DNA from: a virus
Lineage: Duplodnaviria; Caudoviricetes
Direction: 5' to 3' (one strand)
IMG/VR virus record: IMGVR_UViG_3300023174_000144
Coordinates: 10,472 to 74,471 of that record
DNA: 64,000 bases
Under the pieces are notes generated by a model that worked only from the letters and a program-made list of their open reading frames with translations, made no database searches and had not been told where the DNA came from. This document shows positions 1 through 10,147 of this stretch, in pieces. How positions within the stretch are numbered: position 1 is the stretch's first letter; each line of letters begins with the position of its first letter. The translations under genes and the position numbers were made by a program.

Positions 1-1
1 G

Positions 2-184
2 AATCCTTCTTACGAGGAGGATACTGATCGCAACCTGTACAATTTGTACAATGCGTCAACTCAGTTCCTGACTCGGAACGTTGCAGATGAACGCTATGAG
101 TATAGCGAGCGCATCAGCACTGATTTGCTCAAAGTCTTCTCGGGCAAAACCCGTGACGAAGAGCTCCTGAAGCTGGTCGCCTAA
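2..184 (+). CDS. 3' end of a gene truncated by the window edge, DUF932-like
   Basis: Open frame 2 reads NPSYEEDTDRNLYNLYNASTQFLT...KLVA then TAA at 182-184. The LYNLYNA.T motif resembles the DUF932 C-terminus. A terminator follows. Confidence 0.45.
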   Translation, partial: NPSYEEDTDRNLYNLYNASTQFLTRNVADERYEYSERISTDLLKVFSGKTRDEELLKLVA

Positions 185-204
185 ACTAAAACGAAACTTT
201 AACA

Positions 205-236
205 GGTGCGAGGGGCAAAACCCCTCGCATCTTTTT
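205..236 (+). terminator. Rho-independent terminator
   Basis: TGCGAGGGG-caaaa-CCCCTCGCA stem followed by CTTTTT. Confidence 0.85.
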
Positions 237-255
237 GCTCAAATTTAATGAATTA

Positions 256-328
256 TAAGTCGTTGACCATCAAGCACTTACAGCGCGCGGGACCCTGCGT
301 TTGTAAGTCGTTAACCATTAACGAGATT
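256..328. repeat. Paired-palindrome element E1
   Basis: TAAGTCGTTGA-cca-TCAAGCACTTA (256-280), 23-nt GC linker, TAAGTCGTTAA-cca-TTAACGAGATT (304-328); 6 nt upstream of TTGACA. Confidence 0.9.
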
Positions 329-368
329 TAAATGTTGACAAAAAACCAAGTTCTGTTATTCTTAACCT

Positions 369-581
369 ATGACAAACAAACAATCAGTTCCATTCTATGT
401 GATGAATGTGTTCGGCCAAGACCGAGCCGTTATCCTAAACACCTCAATTCGTATGTGCACGAGCAAAGAAACTTGTTCACTCAAAGATTTGGAAAATTAT
501 GCCAAGGCTTTTGCTGTGGAGTTCTTTCAAGTTCCAAAACCTTCGAGCTTTCCTGCTAAAGTGGGGCAAGTAGTTTCTTGA
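369..581 (+). CDS. hypothetical early protein (leaderless)
   Basis: 70-aa ORF with ATG 6 nt after the -10 box TATTCT. Confidence 0.75.
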   Translation: MTNKQSVPFYVMNVFGQDRAVILNTSIRMCTSKETCSLKDLENYAKAFAVEFFQVPKPSSFPAKVGQVVS

Positions 582-585
582 AGAT

Positions 586-659
586 GGGCATATAGCTCAA
601 TTGGTTAGAGCGAAGCACTCATAATGCTTGGGTTGTAGGTTCAAGTCCTACTGTGCCCA
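586..659 (+). tRNA. tRNA with CAT anticodon (elongator Met or lysidine-type Ile2)
   Basis: Acceptor GGGCATA/TGTGCCC, anticodon arm AAGCA-CTCATAA-TGCTT, T arm GTAGG-TTCAAGT-CCTAC. G1-C72 is paired, so not an initiator. No encoded CCA. Confidence 0.92.
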
Positions 660-723
660 TAAATTATGATAATCTTCATAATTATTTATTGACAAAATCA
701 CAAGAGGTGTTAAACTTAAAACA

Positions 724-861
724 ATGAAAGAACCACATACTCTCCATACTTCTCCTTGTGCGGATTGGATGCTTAACTCTTATAGTAAGTTTGTTGAGCC
801 AACTCAAGCTGACATAGATTGGTATTTTAACAATAAAAGCATTGACAATAAACAAGAATAG
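724..861 (+). CDS. hypothetical 45-aa protein (not in ORF track)
   Basis: MKEPHTLHTSPCADWMLNSYSKFVEPTQADIDWYFNNKSIDNKQE, 7 nt after the TTGACA-N16-TAAACT promoter. Confidence 0.65.
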   Translation: MKEPHTLHTSPCADWMLNSYSKFVEPTQADIDWYFNNKSIDNKQE

Positions 862-875
862 GATAAACTAAAACT

Positions 876-1262
876 ATGAAACTTACAAAACAGAATCTTG
901 GTGGACATTGGGTAATTGGAATCGAAGGCAAGCGAGATGATATTGAGCAGTATCATAATCGAATCTATAATTGGGGTGGCACAAATGGTGAGCTTCAATG
1001 GATGAGTGAGACCTTCGCTTACTTTTGGATTACGATGGAGAAGTTGGAGCGAGTAATGTTCAAGTATGTTATGAGTAGTGTGAGTGATAAACTTGGCAAG
1101 AAAATGAAAGGCAGTAAAGGTGGATTGAAGAAAGCTGTAATGAATCGAGTCCACAATACAATTAATAATATTCCAAACGATACTTTTGTTAGAACAGCAC
1201 AAATCCAAGAGTTCTTTTCGCTCGGAAAGATTTCTGCTGAAAAGTTAGATACTGATAGCTAA
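876..1262 (+). CDS. hypothetical early protein, paralog of 11097-11516
   Basis: Leaderless promoter 842-869. Shares IYNWGGTNG, KG.KGGL and LG.ISAEK with the minus-strand ORF. Confidence 0.85.
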   Translation: MKLTKQNLGGHWVIGIEGKRDDIEQYHNRIYNWGGTNGELQWMSETFAYFWITMEKLERVMFKYVMSSVSDKLGKKMKGSKGGLKKAVMNRVHNTINNIPNDTFVRTAQIQEFFSLGKISAEKLDTDS

Positions 1263-1268
1263 TTTATC

Positions 1269-1353
1269 GGGCAAGTGGCGGAACTGGCGAGACGCATCTG
1301 GCTTAAGATCAGATACATTAGAAACATTGTGAGTTCAAATCTCACCTTGCCCA
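1269..1353 (+). tRNA. tRNA-Leu(UAA)
   Basis: GGGCAAG/CTTGCCC acceptor, TCTGG-CTTAAGA-TCAGA anticodon arm, long variable arm, GTGAG-TTCAAAT-CTCAC T arm. Confidence 0.92.
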
Positions 1354-1365
1354 AGTTTTGATGTT

Positions 1366-1437
1366 GCTCTTATAGCTTAATGGATAAAGTGAATGTCTTC
1401 TAAACATTCTATGCAGGTTCGATTCCTGCTAAGAGCA
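1366..1437 (+). tRNA. tRNA-Arg(UCU)
   Basis: GCTCTTA/TAAGAGC acceptor, AATGT-CTTCTAA-ACATT anticodon arm, GCAGG-TTCGATT-CCTGC T arm. Confidence 0.92.
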
Positions 1438-1489
1438 CTTTAGCTTAAAAAGATAATCTATTTCAATCTAATCTAGTGTAACTATAAGT

Positions 1490-2017
1490 ATGAATAAAAC
1501 TCTGTTAAAGCAATATATAGATTCTGGCTATTCTTCTTATAAGATAGCTAATATTTCTAATAAAGGCCAAACTACAATAAGATACTGGCTCAAAAAATAT
1601 GATTTATTTACCAAAGGAAACAAAAGAGATACTAAAATAATAAATGGAGATACTCATATTAAATGTGGAAACTGTGATAAATTTTATTCAAAAGATAATT
1701 TCTATAAAAAAACAAAAAAGTCATTTATGAGTTATTGCAAAGAATGCTTTAATGAATACGCAAAAGAGAGATGGAAAGCTAGAAAACGTAAGGCTATTGA
1801 ATATAAAGGTGGCAAATGCTCTTCTTGTGGCTATAATAAATGTCCTGATGTTCTTGAATTTCATCATAGAGATCCTAAACAAAAAGAATTTGATTGGAAA
1901 AAACTTCGTCAGATGTCTTGGGATAAGGTAACAAACGAATTAGATAAGTGCGACATACTTTGTTCGAACTGCCATAGAGAGCGACATTACGAAATATTTT
2001 CTCTAAATAAAAAATAA
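1490..2017 (+). CDS. HNH endonuclease with N-terminal HTH and Zn-finger (putative homing endonuclease)
   Basis: CSSCGYNKCPDVLEFHHRDP...ELDKCDILCSNCHRERH HNH motif. N-terminal HTH-like SSYKIANISNKGQTTIRYWLKKY. Confidence 0.85.
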   Translation: MNKTLLKQYIDSGYSSYKIANISNKGQTTIRYWLKKYDLFTKGNKRDTKIINGDTHIKCGNCDKFYSKDNFYKKTKKSFMSYCKECFNEYAKERWKARKRKAIEYKGGKCSSCGYNKCPDVLEFHHRDPKQKEFDWKKLRQMSWDKVTNELDKCDILCSNCHRERHYEIFSLNKK

Positions 2018-2018
2018 C

Positions 2019-2150
2019 ATGTACTCTATTTATGTGAGAGATTTTTTTGACAAGAATGCCCCAATCATTTTTCTTTGTGGAATAAGTTTGAGTATTTTTT
2101 GGGGAGCAATAGAAGAGTTAATTAAAATGTTAATTACACATCTAAAATAG
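2019..2150 (+). CDS. hypothetical 43-aa membrane peptide
   Basis: MYSIYVRDFFDKNAPIIFLCGISLSIFWGAIEELIKMLITHLK; starts 1 nt after the HNH stop. Confidence 0.45.
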   Translation: MYSIYVRDFFDKNAPIIFLCGISLSIFWGAIEELIKMLITHLK

Positions 2151-2221
2151 TTTTTCCAAAATATCTAAGTACACAGTATAAATAGTTGAAATATAAACCA
2201 ATATATTGTAATATATAATAT

Positions 2222-2380
2222 ATGAAGCATGAGAATAGATTTGATAAGAAACTAGAACAAAAAATCTTGTCTGAGATCGATCAAAAAGATCTTAAACAAA
2301 TTGATCAAATGCTTTCTGATTTAGAAATCGTCTGGAAGAAGTGGGTCAAAGCTCATCCAGATTGGAAGTCTCATGAATAA
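2222..2380 (+). CDS. hypothetical 52-aa protein
   Basis: MKHENRFDKKLEQKILSEIDQKDLKQIDQMLSDLEIVWKKWVKAHPDWKSHE; its TAA is the first 3 nt of element E2. Confidence 0.65.
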   Translation: MKHENRFDKKLEQKILSEIDQKDLKQIDQMLSDLEIVWKKWVKAHPDWKSHE

Positions 2381-2450
2381 GTCGTTGATACTCAAGTAGT
2401 TATAGAAGCAGGGAGCTTCGCGTTGTAAGTCGTTGACTCTCAAAGAGATA
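2378..2450. repeat. Paired-palindrome element E2
   Basis: TAAGTCGTTGA-tac-TCAAGTAGTTA, 23-nt linker, TAAGTCGTTGA-ctc-TCAAAGAGATA; 6 nt upstream of TTGACA. Confidence 0.9.
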
Positions 2451-2490
2451 TAAAGCTTGACAATTTTCACATCTATATTAGAATTATTAA

Positions 2491-2619
2491 ATGGCACTTC
2501 TTAAAGCTATTATTAATTTTCCTTTTGTTCAAATTTCGTATGGTGAAGGTAACATTTTATTAAGTTGGAAAGCCTGGCACTTGGCAGTATATTTATATTT
2601 TTGGTGGAATTATTCGTGA
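2491..2619 (+). CDS. hypothetical 42-aa hydrophobic protein
   Basis: MALLKAIINFPFVQISYGEGNILLSWKAWHLAVYLYFWWNYS; leaderless promoter 2457-2484; GTGA overlap with the next gene. Confidence 0.6.
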   Translation: MALLKAIINFPFVQISYGEGNILLSWKAWHLAVYLYFWWNYS

Positions 2620-2957
2620 AAGCAAAGCACAAAGTATACTATAACTTACATAAGCATTGTTTAAGTATAATGCTTCGTGGAAAAGTATTAGAGCATAACT
2701 CAGAGTTCTTTCTTAAAGATGTAGAGTTTAGAGTGAGTCAAGCTGGCAGAAACAGAGTATTAAAAGAAAAGCGGAAAAATGTTCACGCTTTTGTGTGTGG
2801 CACTCCAGATGATGGTTGGCCTATTGATCAAAATGAAAGAAAAGTAACATATAATCCTTATAAGTATAACAGCTTTGTTTATGCTGATACTCTTGAGCCA
2901 GTATACAAAGTAAAGTGGGCTGGTGTTATAAATCGTGATATATTTGTCTTGAATTAA
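2616..2957 (+). CDS. conserved phage hypothetical protein (VYYNLHK...VSQAGRNRVLKEKRKNVHAFV...YNPYK family)
   Basis: Start moved to GTG 2616 (coupled to upstream TGA) rather than TTG 2565. Motif recalled from many phage genomes; function unknown. Confidence 0.8.
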   Translation: MKAKHKVYYNLHKHCLSIMLRGKVLEHNSEFFLKDVEFRVSQAGRNRVLKEKRKNVHAFVCGTPDDGWPIDQNERKVTYNPYKYNSFVYADTLEPVYKVKWAGVINRDIFVLN

Positions 2958-2982
2958 TCTAAAAGTATAGTAGAATTATCTA

Positions 2983-3138
2983 ATGGAAATTACTAAAGCC
3001 AAGAAACTAAAGGAGGGTGGTTACGCACTATACGCAACTGACCCTAAAACTAAAACTGAAACCCAAGTTGGATATATTGGAGAAGGTCTGACTTTGGAAG
3101 CGTGGCTTCCTAAAGGAGTAAAAATTGAAAATTCTTGA
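2983..3138 (+). CDS. hypothetical 51-aa protein
   Basis: MEITKAKKLKEGGYALYATDPKTKTETQVGYIGEGLTLEAWLPKGVKIENS; leaderless promoter 2949-2976. Confidence 0.7.
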   Translation: MEITKAKKLKEGGYALYATDPKTKTETQVGYIGEGLTLEAWLPKGVKIENS

Positions 3139-3538
3139 AGAAACATTTACCAGTCGAGGATTTAAGTTCACGATGATTGGTCGTGATGGCGATGTTGCAA
3201 TCTATAAAAAGCAACTCGATGAACCAGACAGCGAAGCGTTCAACTATGAAGTGATTGCTATTAAGCGTCACAATGGATATGAAATTGCAGGTGTGAAGAT
3301 GCCACCAGCAGAAATGTATCCAAGCGATAGTCAATGGGGCGATTGGGCTTATACTTGTATTGATCGTGAAGATGCAGACAAGCGATTCGTTCAACTAAAA
3401 GAAAAACTAGAAGCTTATGTTGCGACATCAACCTTGCCTAATGGTGAGAAGCGTGGTCGTGGTCGTCCTCGTAAGAGCGATGTTCTTCCAGCACCTCCAG
3501 CAGAAATCCACTTGACACCAGAACAATTAGCAGTATAA
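3125..3538 (+). CDS. hypothetical protein with C-terminal AT-hook
   Basis: TTG start after AAGGAG; KRGRGRPRK AT-hook motif. Confidence 0.8.
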   Translation: MKILEETFTSRGFKFTMIGRDGDVAIYKKQLDEPDSEAFNYEVIAIKRHNGYEIAGVKMPPAEMYPSDSQWGDWAYTCIDREDADKRFVQLKEKLEAYVATSTLPNGEKRGRGRPRKSDVLPAPPAEIHLTPEQLAV

Positions 3539-3545
3539 TCCGATT

Positions 3546-3779
3546 ATGACATACAAATGTGCAGTAAGCGGTGAAGCAATTTCACCAGAGAGAGTTGAGG
3601 CTCTGCAAGTCCTCGGCGTTCCAGAAGCTCTATGGACTAAAAAAGAGCATAGTCAAACAAGAAAGCTAAAAGCTATATATGCAGGTGACGATGGCAGTAA
3701 TGACATTGTTATTTGTGATAATGTAGATGGTGGCTCAATGTTTGAGAATGAAGTAATCGCAGAGGTAGAAAATGACTAA
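3546..3779 (+). CDS. hypothetical protein (DksA/TraR-like C-x2-G..I..ERVEAL N-terminus, weak)
   Basis: Perfect TTGACA-N16-TATAAT-N6-ATG. YKCAVSGEAISPERVEAL resembles a degenerate DksA/TraR finger. Confidence 0.7.
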   Translation: MTYKCAVSGEAISPERVEALQVLGVPEALWTKKEHSQTRKLKAIYAGDDGSNDIVICDNVDGGSMFENEVIAEVEND

Positions 3780-3930
3780 TAAATTTATAGTATTGAGAGA
3801 CGGAGTTCGTGTCAGCGATGATATGTACAATTCAGAAGCAGATGCCCAACACGAGGCAAACTTCTGGCGTGAAATCATCAAGCGTTGGCCAGACGGCACG
3901 AAAGTCGTTATCAAAAAAATCGGTGGATAA
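3772..3930 (+). CDS. hypothetical 52-aa protein
   Basis: MTNKFIVLRDGVRVSDDMYNSEADAQHEANFWREIIKRWPDGTKVVIKKIGG, overlapping the upstream stop. Confidence 0.7.
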   Translation: MTNKFIVLRDGVRVSDDMYNSEADAQHEANFWREIIKRWPDGTKVVIKKIGG

Positions 3931-3952
3931 CTTCGGAGGCCGACACTAAAAT

Positions 3953-4043
3953 ACGAGGGTCGTCTAACTGGTTAAGACCCACGATTTATATTCGTGAAGC
4001 TCTAGATTTGAGCGTAATGAAGGTTCAAATCCTTCCCCTCGTA
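3953..4043 (+). tRNA. tRNA-Ile(UAU)-like with long variable arm
   Basis: ACGAGGG/CCCTCGT acceptor, GTCT/AGAC D stem, CACGA-TTTATAT-TCGTG anticodon arm, 22-nt variable region with GCTC-tagattt-GAGC hairpin, GAAGG-TTCAAAT-CCTTC T arm. Confidence 0.85.
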
Positions 4044-4116
4044 AACCCTTAACAATCAACAAGAAAAAAAAGATAAAAAAGTTTGACAAAAAAGAAAGGT
4101 ATAGTAAGATAAGAGT

Positions 4117-4383
4117 ATGAACAAAATCAAAAACGCAGTAATATACATAACCTCATTCACCAAGTATCTGTTCCTTTTCCTCGTAGGGCAAAGGTATCTG
4201 ATCGAATACAAACCCTACGGCAAAGATGAAGTCTATACTTACATCATTGGTAAGCCTTCGTCTTATACGATTAGCAAGGCTGGCAACAAGTTGTTTACGA
4301 CTTTTTGCTTCTCTGGTCGTATGGATTCTGGCGTGAAGCAATTCCGCTACGATAGAATTACTGGAGGTCTCTCGCCAGTTTAA
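4117..4383 (+). CDS. hypothetical protein (possible WYL/Sm-like C-terminus)
   Basis: Leaderless promoter 4083-4110. GVKQFRYDRI resembles the WYL R.FR.DRI motif (weak). Confidence 0.7.
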   Translation: MNKIKNAVIYITSFTKYLFLFLVGQRYLIEYKPYGKDEVYTYIIGKPSSYTISKAGNKLFTTFCFSGRMDSGVKQFRYDRITGGLSPV

Positions 4384-4422
4384 CAACAGAGAGATGGGGT
4401 CGTGATTTACCCCTCCATATAG

Positions 4423-4455
4423 AAAAGGCGAGACCTAAAAAATCTCGCCTTTTTT
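4423..4455. terminator. Rho-independent terminator, possibly bidirectional
   Basis: AAAAGGCGAGA-cctaaaaaa-TCTCGCCTTTTTT. Confidence 0.85.
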
Positions 4456-4490
4456 ATTGCACTTAAACAAAGTTATGTTAAGATAACTAT

Positions 4491-4619
4491 AGTTCTTTCC
4501 GCAAGGTGTGGAGTGACTAACCCATTAACGCCCTTGAAACCCCAATGCCCAGAGTCTGAGGCAATTAGAGGTGGGTATATATTCTCTTTGATTCTAGAGC
4601 AAAGAGAGCGGAAAAAACT
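4491..4619 (+). ncRNA. candidate structured ncRNA of ~129 nt
   Basis: Own promoter TTGCAC-N16-TAAGAT-N6 and no start codon. 5' AGTTCTTTCCGC pairs with 3' GCGGAAAAAACT (11/12). Internal hairpins; T-rich tail. Confidence 0.6.
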
Positions 4620-4801
4620 TATTTATTTTTGCGCCAATCTTCTCTGTGGTTAAATACCCAACTTAACAAAGCTTTTTCAAAACCAATATCTTGACCAGCT
4701 TTTTCACTTTCAATCCATTTGTGTTTTAAGATCTCTTCTCGTTCTTCCATGAACTTTTTATATAACGCTGACGACTCTAATATTCCAGAGGTTTTCATCA
4801 A
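4619..4801 (-). CDS. small DUF4032-like protein resembling a Verrucomicrobia family
   Basis: SALYKKFMEEREEILKHKWIESEKAGQDIGFEKALLSWVFNHREDW; preceded by late motif GTGTAA (4820-4825, minus strand). Confidence 0.75.
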   Translation of the reverse strand: MMKTSGILESSALYKKFMEEREEILKHKWIESEKAGQDIGFEKALLSWVFNHREDWRKNK

Positions 4802-4884
4802 ATATTATTATAAATAATATTACACAAAATAGCAAATAGTAATTGCTAAATAGCTAAATAATAAATATAATAATACTACATATT

Positions 4885-4956
4885 GGGGCTATCGTCTAAT
4901 GGTTAGGACTCCTCGCTTTCAATGAGGGTGTATCGGTTCGAATCCGTTTAGCCCTA
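4885..4956 (+). tRNA. tRNA-Glu(UUC)
   Basis: GGGGCTA/TAGCCCT acceptor (G1-U72), CCTCG-CTTTCAA-TGAGG anticodon arm, T loop TTCGAAT with one T-stem mismatch. Confidence 0.85.
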
Positions 4957-4973
4957 TATACTTATGATAGTTA

Positions 4974-5046
4974 TAAGTGCTTAATTATCAAAGATTTATA
5001 GCGGCGGGCTCCCTGCCTTTGTAAGTTGTTGATAATGAGAGAGTTA
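4974..5046. repeat. Paired-palindrome element E3
   Basis: TAAGTGCTTAA-tta-TCAAAGATTTA, 23-nt linker tagcggcgggctccctgcctttg, TAAGTTGTTGA-taa-TGAGAGAGTTA. Confidence 0.85.
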
Positions 5047-5181
5047 TTACTCTCCCATATCACGAGCATGGTCAGCATCAAGCTCTGCCTGAGTTTCTAA
5101 GGCTCGTTCCATAGCTTGATCGTCCCACATTTCTTTTGCCCAGATTTTTAGTGTTTTTTCGTCATCGAATATGTTCATCAT
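5047..5181 (-). CDS. hypothetical 44-aa acidic protein (not in ORF track)
   Basis: MMNIFDDEKTLKIWAKEMWDDQAMERALETQAELDADHARDMGE; SD AAGGAGGT; promoter TTGACT-N16-TAATCT. Confidence 0.75.
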   Translation of the reverse strand: MMNIFDDEKTLKIWAKEMWDDQAMERALETQAELDADHARDMGE

Positions 5182-5236
5182 ATTTACCTCCTTTCTTTCT
5201 ATAGATTATCATATTTATCTATATAGTCAACAATTA

Positions 5237-5309
5237 TATTTCATTGATTATTAGAGAGTTACAAAAGCGACCTCCCTTGTGCTGTAAGTCTTTGATGGTG
5301 AATGAGATT
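5237..5309. repeat. Paired-palindrome element E4 between divergent promoters
   Basis: TATTTCATTGA-tta-TTAGAGAGTTA, 23-nt linker, TAAGTCTTTGA-tgg-TGAATGAGATT; each end lies 6 nt from a -35 box. Confidence 0.85.
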
Positions 5310-5349
5310 TATTAGTAGACAAAAAGAAAAAAACTGATATATTTAAACT

Positions 5350-6189
5350 ATGAAAGTAAACGAAATTATCACTGAAAAATTCATCGAAGCCCTCAACAAA
5401 GGTGTCATCCCTTGGCAGAAACCTTGGAAAGTTTTTGACCTCTGCAACGGAGTTTCCAAAAAGAATTATAGGGGCATCAATCAATTTTTGCTACGGATGC
5501 TTGCTTCTGATGATTTCTTTTTTACATTTAATCAGATCAAGGAACTAGGTGGGAGAATCAAAAAGGGTGCAAAGTCTCACATGGTAGTTTATTACAAACT
5601 CCTCAAGACAGAAAGCAACAATGAAACCAAAACTTTTCCAATGATGAGATTTTATAAAGTTTTTGGCTTGAGTGATATTGAGGGCATGAAGTGGAAACAG
5701 CCTGAAGTTAAGAAGTTGGATTTTTCACCAGTAGAAGAAGCAGAAAAGTTGATCAACAAGTGTTTGATTCAGATTAAGTATGGTGGCAGTCGTGCCTGTT
5801 ATTATCCGCAGGAGCATAAAATTGATCTTCCTCCAAAAGAAAATTTCACCAGCGTTGAGGAGTATTATTCCACAGCGTTCCATGAGATTGGTCACGCTAT
5901 GCACAAGGCTACCAATGACGATGTAAAAAATGGATTTGGAACTCAGAATTATAGCAAAGAAGAATTGACAGCAGAGATTTTTGCAAGCCTATGCCTTAAC
6001 TTCTGCGGAATTGATTCAGAAAAATGTTTCAACAATTCTGCCAGCTATCTCTCCAACTGGCTAGGAGTATTAAAGAAAGACATGAACTTTATTATCTCAG
6101 CTTCTAGCAAAGCACAAAAAAGATTTGACGCTTTTATTGGTAGAAAAGAAAGCGAAGAGATTCCACAAGAAGAAGCTGTAACTGCTTAA
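5350..6189 (+). CDS. ardC: ArdC-like antirestriction / ssDNA-binding protein
   Basis: N-terminal GVIPWQKPW...YRGINQFLL (DUF1738) and zincin-like FHEIGH...YSKEELTAE C-terminal domain. Confidence 0.88.
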   Translation: MKVNEIITEKFIEALNKGVIPWQKPWKVFDLCNGVSKKNYRGINQFLLRMLASDDFFFTFNQIKELGGRIKKGAKSHMVVYYKLLKTESNNETKTFPMMRFYKVFGLSDIEGMKWKQPEVKKLDFSPVEEAEKLINKCLIQIKYGGSRACYYPQEHKIDLPPKENFTSVEEYYSTAFHEIGHAMHKATNDDVKNGFGTQNYSKEELTAEIFASLCLNFCGIDSEKCFNNSASYLSNWLGVLKKDMNFIISASSKAQKRFDAFIGRKESEEIPQEEAVTA

Positions 6190-6251
6190 GTATTAACTAC
6201 TTACGCAAGCGGGGTCCCTGCCGTTCTAAGTCATTGATAGTCAATGAGATT
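6179..6251. repeat. Paired-palindrome element E5, overlapping the ardC stop
   Basis: TAACTGCTTAA-gta-TTAACTACTTA, 23-nt linker, TAAGTCATTGA-tag-TCAATGAGATT. Confidence 0.85.
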
Positions 6252-6303
6252 TAACTGTAAAAAAAAAACTTGTACGAAAACAAAAACGTGGTAACCTATT
6301 TTT

Positions 6304-6939
6304 ATGTTCAAAAACAAAAAACAAGCCGAAGAGATTGTTGGCACACTCTCAAAACCCTCGAAGATGCCTGGATATGCTTATTCAACGCCCGCAAAGCGTT
6401 GTCTTATCGGGCAGAAAATGCGGAATGTTGTAGGAAGCATTTGTGCTTTTTGCTATGCTCTTAAAGGGCGTTATGTTTTCCCCAATGTTCAAAAAGCTAT
6501 GGAAAAGCGTTTTGCTTCTCTTACCAATGATTTGTGGGTGGATGCTATGACATACTTAATCGGCAAGGTTAAGAATCCGCATTTCAGGTGGCACGATTCG
6601 GGCGATTTGCAAGGTGTGTGGCATATTGAAAAGATTGTGAAGATTGCAAAGAATCTTCCTCACATTTCTTTTTGGCTTCCAACTCGTGAATATGCTTTCG
6701 TTTCAACCTATATTGAACAAGGCGGTGAAGTTCCTAGCAATCTTACTATCCGTTTGTCTGCTCTGATGATGGATGGCCCCGCACCCGTAGGAATTGCACA
6801 ACGCCTTGGCTTATGCGTTAGCGGTGCAAGTAAGATTGGAAACTTCAACTGCCCAAGCTCCAAACAAGGCAACAAGTGCGGTGATTGTCGCAAGTGTTGG
6901 GATAAAAATGAGTTTGCAATAGATTATAAAAAGCATTAA
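6304..6939 (+). CDS. Gp88-like cysteine-rich phage protein
   Basis: LSKPSKMPG, CAFCYALKGRY, FRWHDSGD, FWLPTRE, NLTIRLSA and C-terminal CGDCRKCW motifs. Confidence 0.7.
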   Translation: MFKNKKQAEEIVGTLSKPSKMPGYAYSTPAKRCLIGQKMRNVVGSICAFCYALKGRYVFPNVQKAMEKRFASLTNDLWVDAMTYLIGKVKNPHFRWHDSGDLQGVWHIEKIVKIAKNLPHISFWLPTREYAFVSTYIEQGGEVPSNLTIRLSALMMDGPAPVGIAQRLGLCVSGASKIGNFNCPSSKQGNKCGDCRKCWDKNEFAIDYKKH

Positions 6940-7009
6940 GATGTCTAGATGACATTAATCTTTTTAATTATCCTTGGAATAATTTTATCATTATATATAA
7001 CATACTAAA

Positions 7010-7159
7010 ATGAAAATTGAAAAACTCTTAAATGAAAATCTAGAATCTTTTTATCCTTGGAATGATTCTGATAATCCTCCACTCGATACAGATAAAAGTT
7101 TCGCACAAAAACAAAAAGAGATAGATGAAATCTTCGAAGGTTGGCGAGCGAGTATGTAA
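7010..7159 (+). CDS. hypothetical 49-aa protein
   Basis: MKIEKLLNENLESFYPWNDSDNPPLDTDKSFAQKQKEIDEIFEGWRASM. Confidence 0.6.
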   Translation: MKIEKLLNENLESFYPWNDSDNPPLDTDKSFAQKQKEIDEIFEGWRASM

Positions 7160-7173
7160 AAAACTTGCTGATG

Positions 7174-7245
7174 TAAGTCTTTGATAGTCAAGGATTTACA
7201 ACGGCAGGGCCCTGCGCCCGTAAGTCGTTGATAATCAATCACTTG
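7174..7245. repeat. Paired-palindrome element E6 at the convergence of the two early arms
   Basis: TAAGTCTTTGA-tag-TCAAGGATTTA, 22-nt linker containing perfect GCAGGGCCCTGC, TAAGTCGTTGA-taa-TCAATCACTTG. Confidence 0.9.
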
Positions 7246-7267
7246 GGACGATAGGTTATTTTACATT

Positions 7268-7501
7268 TTATTCTCCACAAATTTCTGGATCGCCGAAGTA
7301 ACCATAGTCTTCGTCAGTGCCGTGGCCAGCAGAAGCCATAGCAGAGTCAAAGTCGCCATCCATAGATTCGTCTGGCTCGTTAGAGGTTTCGGATTTGATA
7401 GCGCGATCATCTTCGCGCATCTCGTTAAGGATGTCACGCACATCCTGCGAGCCCAACATATGTTGAGCCATCCACTCTTTAAGAGAGGCTTTGTAGTCCA
7501 T
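7268..7501 (-). CDS. hypothetical acidic protein (DGDFDSAMASAGHGTDEDYGY motif)
   Basis: Start reassigned to ATG 7501, because the longer track ORF overlaps a better-supported upstream gene. Confidence 0.75.
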   Translation of the reverse strand: MDYKASLKEWMAQHMLGSQDVRDILNEMREDDRAIKSETSNEPDESMDGDFDSAMASAGHGTDEDYGYFGDPEICGE

Positions 7502-7502
7502 A

Positions 7503-7667
7503 TTATTTGACCTCCACGATGGTTTCAGTTTCGTTATAGCTCGGAGCCATCTTGTCGAGCATTTCATTGATAACGTCTGCGGAGTTGATGTAGTCGAAGA
7601 ATGCTTCCGCATCAGCATAGACTTCAACGCAGTTAATCGAGGCAAGGTAGGTGATTTCGTTTGTCAT
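7503..7667 (-). CDS. hypothetical 54-aa protein (not in ORF track)
   Basis: MTNEITYLASINCVEVYADAEAFFDYINSADVINEMLDKMAPSYNETETIVEVK; promoter TTGCGC-N16-TACATT-N6-ATG. Confidence 0.75.
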   Translation of the reverse strand: MTNEITYLASINCVEVYADAEAFFDYINSADVINEMLDKMAPSYNETETIVEVK

Positions 7668-7818
7668 AAGTTAAATGTATCACAGATTATTTTTAGCGCA
7701 ACATTTATTTTCAGAAAAAGTAAATAGAAGAATTGCTAATAGTAAATAGGAAATAGCCTAATAGTAAATAGCCCAATCTTTTCGCTTCATTCAGTTTTAT
7801 GTTGAAAATCATCATTTG

Positions 7819-7891
7819 TAAGTCGTTGATAGTCAAGGATTTGCGCGCGGGGGCTCCCTGCGTGTGTAAGTCGTTGATAGTGAGCGACTTA
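7819..7891. repeat. Paired-palindrome element E7
   Basis: TAAGTCGTTGA-tag-TCAAGGATTTG, 23-nt linker, TAAGTCGTTGA-tag-TGAGCGACTTA. Confidence 0.9.
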
Positions 7892-8041
7892 TAATTAGTC
7901 AAAAACCATAAAGAAAAAAGCGAGCTTCCAAAGCGTATTTAGAGATGTAATAAAAAAATCTCTCTCTCAAAAAGTTTTTCTTCTCACCATTTTTCACAGC
8001 GAGACGAAAAGTTTTTTTATTTATTTTGAAAAGTATTTTTT

Positions 8042-8236
8042 TCATTCGTATTGCCACTCACTAGCTTCTTCTTCGATCTCTGCTTCTATGTCAGGCCACA
8101 TATGGTCAGGAATAGAATAATTTCGGTTTAACTTTTTATCTTTGGCGATTTGAATTGCTCGCCCTAAACTTTGGAGAGCTTCGCTCCCGAAGTAGATTTC
8201 TTCTTTTAATCTTTGAACACTATTTGTTAAGTCCAT
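8042..8236 (-). CDS. hypothetical protein
   Basis: 64-aa ORF coupled to the upstream gene. Confidence 0.7.
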   Translation of the reverse strand: MDLTNSVQRLKEEIYFGSEALQSLGRAIQIAKDKKLNRNYSIPDHMWPDIEAEIEEEASEWQYE

Positions 8237-8237
8237 A

Positions 8238-8420
8238 TTATTTGCTCAACCTTTCTTGTGCATCTTTGAGATATTCAAGAGCCTCTCTGATTGATTCGTT
8301 TTGCCAACCTTTTGTGTAAGGTTTGACTGCTTCTAGTTTAATCACAGCAACCGAGAGGCAACCTTTTGCCCATCCTTTGTTGTGTGCTTCATTCATTATT
8401 TTTTCAATTTCAATTTCCAT
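8238..8420 (-). CDS. hypothetical protein
   Basis: Start at MEIEIEK (ATG 8420) after GGAGA. Confidence 0.7.
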   Translation of the reverse strand: MEIEIEKIMNEAHNKGWAKGCLSVAVIKLEAVKPYTKGWQNESIREALEYLKDAQERLSK

Positions 8421-8421
8421 A

Positions 8422-8697
8422 TTAGTCTCCTTTGTATTTTGAGGATTCGTTGAAACTTCCAATGAAGTTCATCGTTCCGTTTTTGCGTTCTTCGCATTGT
8501 TTGAGAAGTTCGGGAGTCATTTCGACTTCGGTCACTTCATCATAAAAAGCTAGGACACTTCCAACTCCAGAGATTCTAGAAAGGCATTTCTTGTTTGAGG
8601 TTGAGTTGAACATTTCGCAGATTGCGATATGGTTTTCGATTTGGTAGTATTTACCCACTACGAGGGTTTCTATTGTGTTTTTCATTTGTTCTTTCAT
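8422..8697 (-). CDS. hypothetical protein
   Basis: Leaderless promoter TTGACA-N16-TAGATT-N6-ATG. Confidence 0.75.
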   Translation of the reverse strand: MKEQMKNTIETLVVGKYYQIENHIAICEMFNSTSNKKCLSRISGVGSVLAFYDEVTEVEMTPELLKQCEERKNGTMNFIGSFNESSKYKGD

Positions 8698-8738
8698 ATT
8701 CTTAATCTATCACACTTTCTGATTTTGTCAAGCTGTTA

Positions 8739-8763
8739 AATTTCGTTGATTTACAGCGACTTA
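8739..8763. repeat. Single 25-bp palindrome of the E family
   Basis: AATTTCGTTGA-ttt-ACAGCGACTTA, 7 nt from the -35 box at 8726-8731. Confidence 0.75.
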
Positions 8764-8939
8764 GGACTTTTCCCATTAAGTTTTTCTTTAAGTAGAGCGT
8801 GAGCCCTAGCTTTTTCAGGGTTATTCTTTTTCCATTCAGCCCATCGCTTTTTGCGATTTGACCATATAGCTTGATTTTTTTCTTTGCGTTGAATTTCCCA
8901 CTCTTGGGAAGTTAGTTCTTTTTTATTATCTTTATTCAT
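8751..8939 (-). CDS. hypothetical basic protein
   Basis: Likely start at MNKDNKK; A-rich leader resembles that of 9872-10147. Confidence 0.65.
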   Translation of the reverse strand: MNKDNKKELTSQEWEIQRKEKNQAIWSNRKKRWAEWKKNNPEKARAHALLKEKLNGKSPKSL

Positions 8940-9031
8940 TTTATTTTTTCTTTCTTTCATTTTCATTTCTTATCTTGTTATAAGTATAGTTTAGCATATT
9001 TCAGAGAAAACGCAACAAAAATCTTCATTTA

Positions 9032-9104
9032 AATTTCATTGATCATCAACGAGTTACAACGCAAGGGACCCTGCGTCTGTAAGTCATTATCTTGTAACAA
9101 CTTA
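9032..9104. repeat. Paired-palindrome element E8
   Basis: AATTTCATTGA-tca-TCAACGAGTTA, 23-nt linker, TAAGTCATTAT-ctt-GTAACAACTTA. Confidence 0.88.
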
Positions 9105-9116
9105 CATCAGCTAATT

Positions 9117-9512
9117 TTAGAATGCCGTGAAAGTCATTTTTGTAGATTCATCTAAAGTTTTTTTAGAAGGTTTGAAAAAGATTACTTTTTCTGAAACTTT
9201 TTCAACTGTGATATTTTCTGGCAAAGAAACTGTCTCACCTTCATCATCTGTGGCTACCATCAGAGCCTTGCCAGCATAAGGTTGAGATTGAATCCCATAC
9301 TTAAAGTAGGCTTGATGCTCTGAATCTTTTAGTAGTCCTTCGTCATCTAGAATTAAATCGATTCCTCTGTATTGGTTTGATGTGCCAATGCCAGCAACTG
9401 TTATGATTTCGCAATCAATTAAGTTTTTAATGGTTTGAAGTTTAGTATCAACCATCGTTACATCCATTACAGTTTCAGTAAATGGGTCTATGAGTATTGC
9501 TCTTGTCATCAT
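9117..9512 (-). CDS. DUF3846-like protein
   Basis: AILIDPF...LQTIKNLIDC...LILDDEGLLK...YAGKALMV. Confidence 0.7.
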   Translation of the reverse strand: MMTRAILIDPFTETVMDVTMVDTKLQTIKNLIDCEIITVAGIGTSNQYRGIDLILDDEGLLKDSEHQAYFKYGIQSQPYAGKALMVATDDEGETVSLPENITVEKVSEKVIFFKPSKKTLDESTKMTFTAF

Positions 9513-9513
9513 A

Positions 9514-9657
9514 TTAGATGTTCCTCGTTTTTAGTAGGTTGCTCAACTCTGCTAGATAAACTCCAGCGGTGAGGTTGTATTGTTTATTGTTTAGGTCTTT
9601 GATGATGTCCACCAAGTTGGAAGCCAACTCGATAATCTTGTCATTGGTATTGTTCAT
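9514..9657 (-). CDS. hypothetical 47-aa protein (not in ORF track)
   Basis: MNNTNDKIIELASNLVDIIKDLNNKQYNLTAGVYLAELSNLLKTRNI; promoter TTGACA-N17-TAACCT-N6-ATG. Confidence 0.7.
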   Translation of the reverse strand: MNNTNDKIIELASNLVDIIKDLNNKQYNLTAGVYLAELSNLLKTRNI

Positions 9658-9688
9658 ATGTTTAGGTTATCTCCTTTTGCTAATTTTG

Positions 9689-9871
9689 TCAAACACCAAA
9701 CTTGTTACGATATTGATTATATAGGTTTTGATATTCTTCGCCACCTTGGGCGATAGCTTCTTCAATTTCTTTAAGTTGATTTTGACCTCTGCGATAGTAG
9801 TATGAGTCTTCACTCATTTGGTAAGTCCAATCGTGATTCTTTAAGAGTTCTTCGAATTGTTGAATGTTCAT
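9689..9871 (-). CDS. conserved small phage protein (L..HDW.Y..S.D...Y.RG)
   Basis: 60-aa ORF directly coupled to the upstream stop. Confidence 0.75.
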   Translation of the reverse strand: MNIQQFEELLKNHDWTYQMSEDSYYYRRGQNQLKEIEEAIAQGGEEYQNLYNQYRNKFGV

Positions 9872-10147
9872 TTATTTATTTTCCTTTATTAGTTTAGCGT
9901 TATTAAGGTTGATAGTTCCAACCTTATCTTTATCTTTACCTTCTAGGAAGGTTACAACCGCAGTATTTGCAGAAGTTTTGTAAGAAACTTTTACTAGAGT
10001 TCCTTCGTAAAGGTATATTTCACCAAAGTAAGTTGGTGTATTGTTAGAGTTAGTAATGATTACTTCTTCAGAAGCATTCATATTTTTTCGCATATTTTCA
10101 CGCATTTGTTTTCGTTGAAAATTCCAGTTTATCATTCTATGAGTCAT
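9872..10147 (-). CDS. hypothetical protein
   Basis: 91-aa ORF downstream of promoter 10197-10224. Confidence 0.7.
   Translation of the reverse strand: MTHRMINWNFQRKQMRENMRKNMNASEEVIITNSNNTPTYFGEIYLYEGTLVKVSYKTSANTAVVTFLEGKDKDKVGTINLNNAKLIKENK

Follow-up and report, generated by a model that had tools for sequence, protein, structure and literature searches.

The window analysed here, a stretch of 64,000 nucleotides of phage DNA, contains a promoter between an 88-aa gene and a convergent DUF4032-like gene that leads to AGT at the position where neighbouring genes start with ATG. This arrangement raises the question whether the interval encodes an RNA and, if so, to which kind of RNA it belongs and how it might act. 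Comparative analysis of the locus and its homologues makes it very probable that the interval contains a real, conserved and independently transcribed structured RNA gene, representing a new family that is absent from Rfam. The explanation that best accounts for the whole of the data, and that is considered likely on balance, is a new family of phage small RNAs that would be made early, be stable and act in trans as homodimers. The coordinates of the relevant features are compiled in Table 1.

Table 1. Features of the RNA gene and of its surroundings in the window
Feature	Position	Strand	Remarks
tRNA-Ile(UAU)	3952-4044	+	93 nt, 5' of the RNA gene; ARAGORN
Intrinsic terminator of the upstream 88-aa gene	4423-4455	+	A-run, 7-bp GC-rich stem (4427-4433/4443-4449), 9-nt loop, T6 (4450-4455)
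Sigma-70-type promoter, extended -10	4457-4484	+	-35 TTGCAC 4457-4462; spacer 16 nt; TG 4476-4477; -10 TAAGAT 4479-4484
RNA, short form, 129 nt	4491-4619	+	Covariance model R1: 138.5 bits, E = 1e-32
P1	4491-4502 with 4608-4619	+	11/12 paired; C4495/A4615 mismatch
P2	4503-4506 with 4532-4535	+	Encloses P2a; 3/4 pairs change on both sides
P2a hairpin	4509-4511 with 4522-4524	+	3/5 family pairs change on both sides
P2a loop GACU	4515-4518	+	Invariant in all versions
P3	4539-4543 with 4571 and 4573-4576	+	U4572 bulged; 3/5 pairs covary
Core hairpin, inside P3	4547-4562	+	Closed by the TGCC/GGCA pair; AGUC at 4553-4556
P4 hairpin	4583-4590/4600-4607 (stem), 4591-4599 (loop)	+	9-nt loop; 8/8 stem pairs covary
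P4-loop palindrome UCUAGA	4593-4598	+	6 nt
U-rich tract directly after P1	4620-4630	+	Probable 3' end by termination or processing
Convergent 60-aa DUF4032-like gene	4619-4801	-	Last RNA base overlapped by the stop codon (4619-4621)
tRNA-Glu	4884-4957		3' of the RNA gene; ARAGORN

The locus and its homologues

The window belongs to a large phage of the siphovirus-like type. Its products include minor tail and tail-assembly proteins as well as a 2789-aa protein (window:34471-42840, + strand) whose only relatives are tape-measure proteins; the first ~400 residues of this protein display 26-29% identity to tape-measure proteins of Bacillus, Lactococcus and actinobacterial phages. A complete relative of the window phage comprises 171,916 bp, and the phages of this class are freshwater phages of ~170-172 kb. 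Most proteins of the window phage, including most of the other structural ones, had no family match in PHROGs, and searches of the neighbouring and structural proteins against PHROGs and Pfam matched little and gave no clue to the host. Likewise, positions 4380-4700 had no blastn match among 50,697 GenBank phage records. Direct neighbours of the RNA gene encode an ArdC-like anti-restriction protein and a gp88-like protein.

Five tRNAs were detected by ARAGORN in positions 1-10000 of the window, all of them within the first 5 kb and in agreement with Rfam. The RNA gene is flanked by tRNA-Ile and tRNA-Glu, i.e. it is located inside the tRNA island of the phage. The same tRNA-Ile with anticodon UAU is present in the relatives L001, L265, L130 and L241. 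In relatives, tRNA arrays are found directly upstream or downstream of the RNA gene, and in less closely related phages it comes immediately after a same-strand tRNA array. In the closest relative, L001, the 88-aa gene and the RNA are separated by an additional ORF of 125 aa that has a promoter of its own (7268-7645, - strand), and a tRNA-Lys is inserted immediately after the RNA. The early region has the mosaic build of a series of small cassettes.

An exact 20-mer search had led to a single IMG/VR contig with 75-87% identity over the early region, in which a tRNA-Lys directly follows the RNA. Further homologues were collected by searches with two flanking small proteins, by blastn against the fetched loci, by exact-core scans of viral, genome and metagenome collections, by one gapped pattern and by the covariance model R1. 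The resulting set comprises 77 distinct full-length versions from uncultivated phage contigs, mostly of freshwater origin. With R1, positions 4491-4619 were the sole match in the window, and a single copy per genome was likewise present in each of four large phage records. An exact-core scan of one genome for each of 185,579 prokaryote species yielded 15 matches, all of which were due to chance, with the family flanks absent. The core sequence was not found in the literature searched.

The 77 versions can be divided into three size classes of 129-139 nt (57 versions), 152-153 nt (4 versions) and 215 nt (16 versions). The medium forms have an additional hairpin within P2 and a longer P4. In the long forms (L012:3181-3395:- and 15 others), 85 nt are inserted between P2a and the 5' strand of P1. 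A 6-bp helix closes this insert, which contains two hairpins with GNRA caps; one of the stems covaries, and the tetraloops vary within the GNRA motif. A divergent group of long forms has the same promoter and a covarying P1. In the MAFFT alignment, the P1/P2 junction of the short form, CCGCAAG, is aligned with one insert hairpin of the long forms. The short form may be a deletion derivative of the long form, or the match at the junction may be due to chance.

In five related contigs the same slot is occupied by a different ORF-free RNA candidate of ~179 nt (L030:3164-3342:- as well as L032, L033, L034 and L041; these contigs are identical with L098, L099, L101, L102 and L106). The slot has the same terminator, promoter geometry and first nine bases, and converges on the DUF4032-like gene. 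A helix of ~13 bp in which changes are wobble-compensated closes the candidate, and one of its hairpins is capped by GAAA; the candidate matched neither R1 nor Rfam and is absent from the window. From these sequences, the locus looks like a slot for swappable RNA cassettes.

Transcription unit and secondary structure

The transcription unit begins downstream of an intrinsic terminator whose 9-nt loop exceeds the limit of 8 nt used in a simple terminator scan, which therefore skipped it. Judged from its sequence, this terminator would insulate the RNA gene against transcription from upstream, and it could work bidirectionally. In most relatives, the region 5' of the promoter likewise ends with GCC and six T residues followed by A. 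The promoter layout TTG...-N16-TAnnnT-6 nt-ATG occurs 11 times in the window as against 2.0 expected, exclusively in the first 12 kb, and these occurrences include the neighbouring genes starting at 3546 and 4117. In all 11 cases (window:1-12000) the ATG coincides with the predicted +1, pointing to early mRNAs without leaders. In the RNA gene the same local promoter geometry lands on AGU instead of ATG and thereby assigns the +1 to A4491, which is located 7 nt past the -10 box and represents the first base of helix P1. The terminator, the TTGCAC-N16-TAAGAT promoter with the geometry of the other early promoters and the +1 at AGT had all been proposed in the sequence-only reading, and each was recovered here.

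The -35/-10 pair is present in all 71 listed versions with enough upstream flank, and in every one of them exactly 6 nt separate the -10 box from the A of AGUUC, with differing promoter sequences. The RNA gene thus appears to have its own early-type sigma-70 promoter, with a predicted 5' end that is placed by promoter geometry. Regarding the 3' end, the tract directly following P1 is also rich in T in the relatives, with a mean of 6.2 T residues in the first 12 nt.

The downstream region was tallied for 73 versions. A convergent DUF4032-like gene follows in 37 of them, the next promoter within 30 nt in 15 and a same-strand tRNA starting 8-15 nt further on in 13 (Lys in 8, Pro in 4 and Tyr in 1); seven have another context and one has too little flank. 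A same-strand downstream gene is absent in 59 of the 73 versions. The varied downstream context characterizes the RNA as a free-standing gene of the tRNA island and not as the leader of one particular gene. The assignment of the adjoining gene in the window is based on a match to Pfam DUF4032 with E = 4.9e-5 and 23.7 bits, set against a cut-off of 23.8 bits. Relatives of this protein were found at 78 viral loci, of which about half are without the RNA. Since no minus-strand terminator is present between the DUF4032-like gene and position 4455, its mRNA may run antisense through the whole RNA gene.

A single-sequence fold of the RNA yielded -41.5 kcal/mol with z = -3.4 relative to shuffled sequences. 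In a model-fitted alignment of the 77 versions, pairing is found in 92.0% of the cells and two-sided changes in 21 of 40 pairs; this alignment leans to the structure since it was fitted to the model, and it misaligns the 215-nt forms in P1 and P2. When the pairing partners were slid by 1-3 columns as a control, 37-56% of the cells were paired and 3-9 pairs showed two-sided changes, and none of 500 shuffles reached the observed percentage of paired cells or the covariation score. A MAFFT alignment combined with a hand-drawn structure gave 89.8% paired cells and 17 of 40 pairs with two-sided changes. G-U pairs are common, with UG occurring in 25-31 versions at two pairs, and this frequency assigns the RNA to the + strand.

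Helix P1 covaries across the forms of the family, with UUUCCGC/GCGGAAR in the short forms, UUCGA/UCGAA in the 215-nt forms and UUCCUUCCG/CGGAAGGAG in L297. The variants of P2 include AAGG/CCUU, AAUG/CAUU, AGUG/CACU and others, whereas P3 exists as RCCCC/G-GGGU versus CUGCC/G-GCAG. Together with the pairs listed in Table 1, these changes support a predicted closed four-way junction consisting of P1, P2 with P2a, P3 with the conserved core hairpin, and P4. Two further pairings were rejected or weakened: a pairing of 4545-4551 with 4572-4578 that is suggested by the single sequence is not kept by the family, and an extended inner helix of the core hairpin proposed by RNAalifold contains uncompensated A/A and A/C mismatches in six versions.

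The elements perceived in the single sequence were thereby borne out. The first 12 nt do pair with 4608-4619, with the exception of one mismatch; the hairpin CTCTTTG/CAAAGAG (4584-4606) is real and forms part of the slightly longer P4 stem; the probable hairpins at 4503-4535 correspond to P2 and P2a; and the TGCC/GGCA pairing closes the conserved core hairpin. The suspected multi-way junction is a four-way junction in the homologues, where the helices are kept by compensatory changes, and the covariation among homologues that had been named as a check was found. The claim that the interval contains no ORF also holds, as the only ORF on the + strand (46 aa, 4513-4653) has no PHROG match and is broken by 1-nt indels throughout between close relatives, which identifies the region as non-coding. 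Features that the sequence-only reading had missed are the P4-loop palindrome with its mode of evolution, the possible GACU/AGUC pairing, the 153-nt and 215-nt forms and the regular position in tRNA islands.

The most conserved part of the RNA is the core. The 17 bases at 4547-4563 are invariant in 18 versions that were found through neighbouring genes alone; in the complete collection, core invariance is overstated because most members were gathered by exact core patterns, the later scans having used the core as query, and the core variants found by the model all differ at a single position, 4557. The P2a loop GACU and the core loop AGUC are both present in every version, and the P2a loop may pair with the core loop, either as an intramolecular pseudoknot or between molecules. 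As these four pairs never vary, covariation neither supports nor contradicts them. At the flanking fifth position most versions have U/U, the four medium forms A-U and five of the long forms U-A. This U-to-A change also disrupts the alternative inner core helix (pair 95-101), which weakly favours the loop-loop pairing of GACU with AGUC.

The P4 loop palindrome and possible functions

The P4 loop of all short forms and of most long ones is composed of 2 nt, a 6-nt palindrome and 1 nt. The palindrome is UCUAGA in 65 versions, UCAUGA in nine and UCCGGA in one, and two versions have GUCGAC within an enlarged loop that also holds CUAG; among the 77 versions there are no non-palindromic intermediates. 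The long forms L015 and L179 differ over their 215 nt solely by a swap of the central UA to AU, and the same swap is the only difference between L213 and L201, the background of which deviates from that of L015 and L179 at six other positions. The switches of the palindrome represent few events, with at least three sequence types beyond the commonest one among related phages. Since the centre of the palindrome is located half a base off the stem axis, it is not a mere extension of the hairpin. Moreover, adjacent bases cannot pair within one chain, and a palindrome that is kept as a palindrome therefore speaks for pairing of one molecule with another. For the 6-bp loop helix, nearest-neighbour energies of -5.0 to -8.7 kcal/mol were calculated, the UCUAGA helix being AU-rich and weak. 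Restriction-site avoidance does not account for the pattern, as TCTAGA is neither rare nor frequent in the window (20 copies versus ~22 expected from base composition).

Palindrome-to-palindrome covariation has been used by Kretsch et al. in support of intermolecular kissing loops in OLE and GOLLD (bioRxiv 10.1101/2024.12.08.627333), and kissing loops are visible by cryo-EM at L9.3 of OLE and L21a of GOLLD (bioRxiv 10.1101/2024.12.08.627333). By the same signature, the RNA described here probably forms a homodimer through its P4 loop. Two molecules would pair via the 6-nt palindrome to give a symmetric kissing loop that might be able to convert into an extended duplex. The folded dimer would then be a trans-acting scaffold or decoy that engages a protein or tRNA at an early stage of infection, with the invariant core as a putative recognition surface. 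The sequence-only reading had proposed, as a putative role, a decoy or anti-defence RNA or a regulator. Such a trans-acting early role as scaffold or decoy is the most economical reading of the data, but it is put forward tentatively and is more doubtful than the dimer itself. An unlikely extension of the dimer proposal is that dimers formed through P4 and intermolecular GACU/AGUC contacts would together build rings or cages, which would make this RNA the smallest natural one with an RNA-only quaternary assembly. In this unlikely scheme, UCUAGA, UCAUGA and UCCGGA would represent compatibility types that prevent mixing among the RNAs of co-infecting phages.

Other explanations have to be weighed against the homodimer. 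The RNA might act as a monomeric decoy or sponge for a protein, comparable to 6S RNA or Y RNA, with the P4 palindrome being either a recognition sequence or a coincidence. Ends closed by the 12-bp P1, an invariant core of 16-17 nt along with many conserved A residues in the junctions, the early-type promoter and neighbours of the anti-restriction or host-takeover type, such as the ArdC-like protein, are all compatible with this function. A sequence-specific protein site, however, should not accept a central UA, AU or CG or the sequence GUCGAC, whereas self-complementarity is the sole property kept in the P4 loop; furthermore, the search found no candidate partner, and a monomeric decoy is regarded as quite unlikely. 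It is very unlikely that the RNA is a ligand-binding aptamer, either gating read-through into a tRNA like a riboswitch or acting as a sponge for a small signal. Although conserved junction nucleotides and a four-way junction that may include a tertiary loop-loop contact are typical of aptamers, and a tRNA follows without an intervening promoter in 13 of 73 versions, the weak full-length likeness to the SAM-I model (13.1 bits, E = 8.8) is far below the threshold of 44.4 bits, and 59 of the 73 versions lack a downstream gene on the same strand. Moreover, no alternative terminator/antiterminator pairing that might provide an expression platform is seen, P1 is a long, stable helix, and the palindromic loop would be left unexplained.

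The consistent location in or beside tRNA arrays on the same strand, including a same-strand tRNA only 8-15 nt downstream in 13 versions, would also be expected from a stable product of tRNA-island transcription with a role in tRNA maturation or in protection from host nucleases. The T4 RNAs rnaC and rnaD are likewise located at the end of the T4 tRNA array. Very little probability is nevertheless given to such a product: the RNA is preceded by its own promoter wherever the flank is long enough and lacks any tRNA-like feature, R1 sees no similarity to rnaC or rnaD (best score 4.1 bits), and with no known function of the T4 RNAs themselves, little mechanism would be added. Resemblance to parts of a tRNA was also considered in the form of an anticodon-loop or T-loop mimic and rejected, as loop sizes and conserved positions are unsuitable. 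Finally, the locus could be a cis-antisense regulator of the DUF4032-like gene, an element acting at the DNA level or simply the 46-aa ORF. The overlap of the DUF4032-like stop codon with the last base of the RNA (4619), potentially overlapping transcripts in the absence of a minus-strand terminator and the convergent arrangement in 37 of 73 versions speak for antisense regulation; on the other hand, 36 versions lack an adjoining DUF4032-like gene and about half of the DUF4032-like loci lack the RNA. The compensatory changes and the many G-U pairs are those of a structured + strand RNA and not of a DNA element, and the ORF is excluded by frame-breaking indels. This group of explanations is considered extremely improbable, and the P4-mediated homodimer is preferred over all of the above.

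Comparison with known RNAs

In gathering mode, the 4227 models of Rfam 15, which include SRP RNA, 6S RNA, tmRNA, Y-RNA-like RNAs, ROOL, GOLLD, OLE, pRNA and the known ribozymes and riboswitches, detected only tRNAs in the window. In sensitive mode, nothing above 20 bits was found inside the RNA in the region 4300-4900, SAM-I being the best full-length match, and the 215-nt form matched no Rfam family. Over 38 kb surrounding the RNA in a complete relative, Rfam likewise detected tRNAs alone. ARAGORN found no tRNA or tmRNA at 4491-4619. The impression from the single sequence that the RNA resembles no tRNA, SRP RNA, 6S RNA or ribozyme core thus agrees with ARAGORN and Rfam 15, and the Rfam search that had been suggested as a check returned no known family. 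Cores of hammerhead, hairpin, twister and pistol ribozymes were rejected, as the motifs noticed by eye (CUGA, GUC and GUAUAU) are misarranged and without an Rfam match. A published IMG/VR catalogue lists 8,495 candidate structured RNAs that are intergenic, covarying and 29-151 nt in length (PMC10690425), and judged by the description of that catalogue, the family may stand in it unnamed.

The T4 species 1 and 2 (rnaC and rnaD) are small stable RNAs and share with the present RNA, for which stability is predicted, a size of ~120-140 nt and a same-strand position at the end of a tRNA array. They are annotated within the tRNA array, whereas the RNA described here has its own promoter. With filters switched off, the best match of R1 in the T4 region 68000-76000 was located over rnaC, with E = 6.3.

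The pRNA of phage phi29 multimerises by pairing of two complementary loops. It is likewise a structured RNA encoded by a phage, and the GACU and AGUC loops could by analogy pair in a similar way. In contrast to pRNA, the present RNA has no match to an Rfam family, belongs to a ~172-kb siphovirus-like phage and not to a phi29-like podovirus, and has no link to packaging.

With regard to the P4 loop, a parallel is the dimerization initiation site (DIS) of HIV-1, a hairpin with a 9-nt loop that is composed of 2 nt, a 6-nt palindrome and one purine. The DIS has alternative palindromic alleles depending on the lineage, and its hairpin is convertible into an extended duplex. The build of the loop and the allelic palindromes are thus the same as in P4. 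By contrast, the DIS is part of the leader of the viral genomic RNA, whereas the RNA described here is a free small RNA; in addition, the flanking bases of the P4 loop are not always purines, and the P4 helix is AU-rich.

Structured RNAs without an assigned function continue to turn up in phage tRNA islands. To such RNAs belong GOLLD and ROOL, the genes of which are carried by phages and prophages, often close to tRNA islands; along with OLE, they form RNA-only dimers or cages (bioRxiv 10.1101/2024.12.08.627333). The new RNA is phage-encoded and located near tRNA islands in the same way, and its P4 loop shares the palindrome-to-palindrome covariation with OLE and GOLLD, the dimer being predicted here from sequence alone. 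GOLLD, ROOL and OLE measure ~500-800 nt and more as compared to 129-215 nt for the new family, and there is no match in sequence or structure. By context and palindrome signature, the self-assembling RNAs of phage tRNA islands, GOLLD and ROOL, appear to be the nearest known kind. An RNA of 129 nt with a signature of intermolecular pairing is more easily accessible to biochemistry, mutagenesis and structure work than the very large GOLLD and ROOL, and the family offers natural size classes, natural kissing-loop alleles and related phages with a different RNA in the same slot. As the proteins of these ~170-kb freshwater phages are largely unknown, the RNA may point to an RNA-based mechanism of host takeover or anti-defence. 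If the unlikely assembly into rings or cages held true, the family would represent a miniature counterpart of ROOL and GOLLD in phage tRNA islands.
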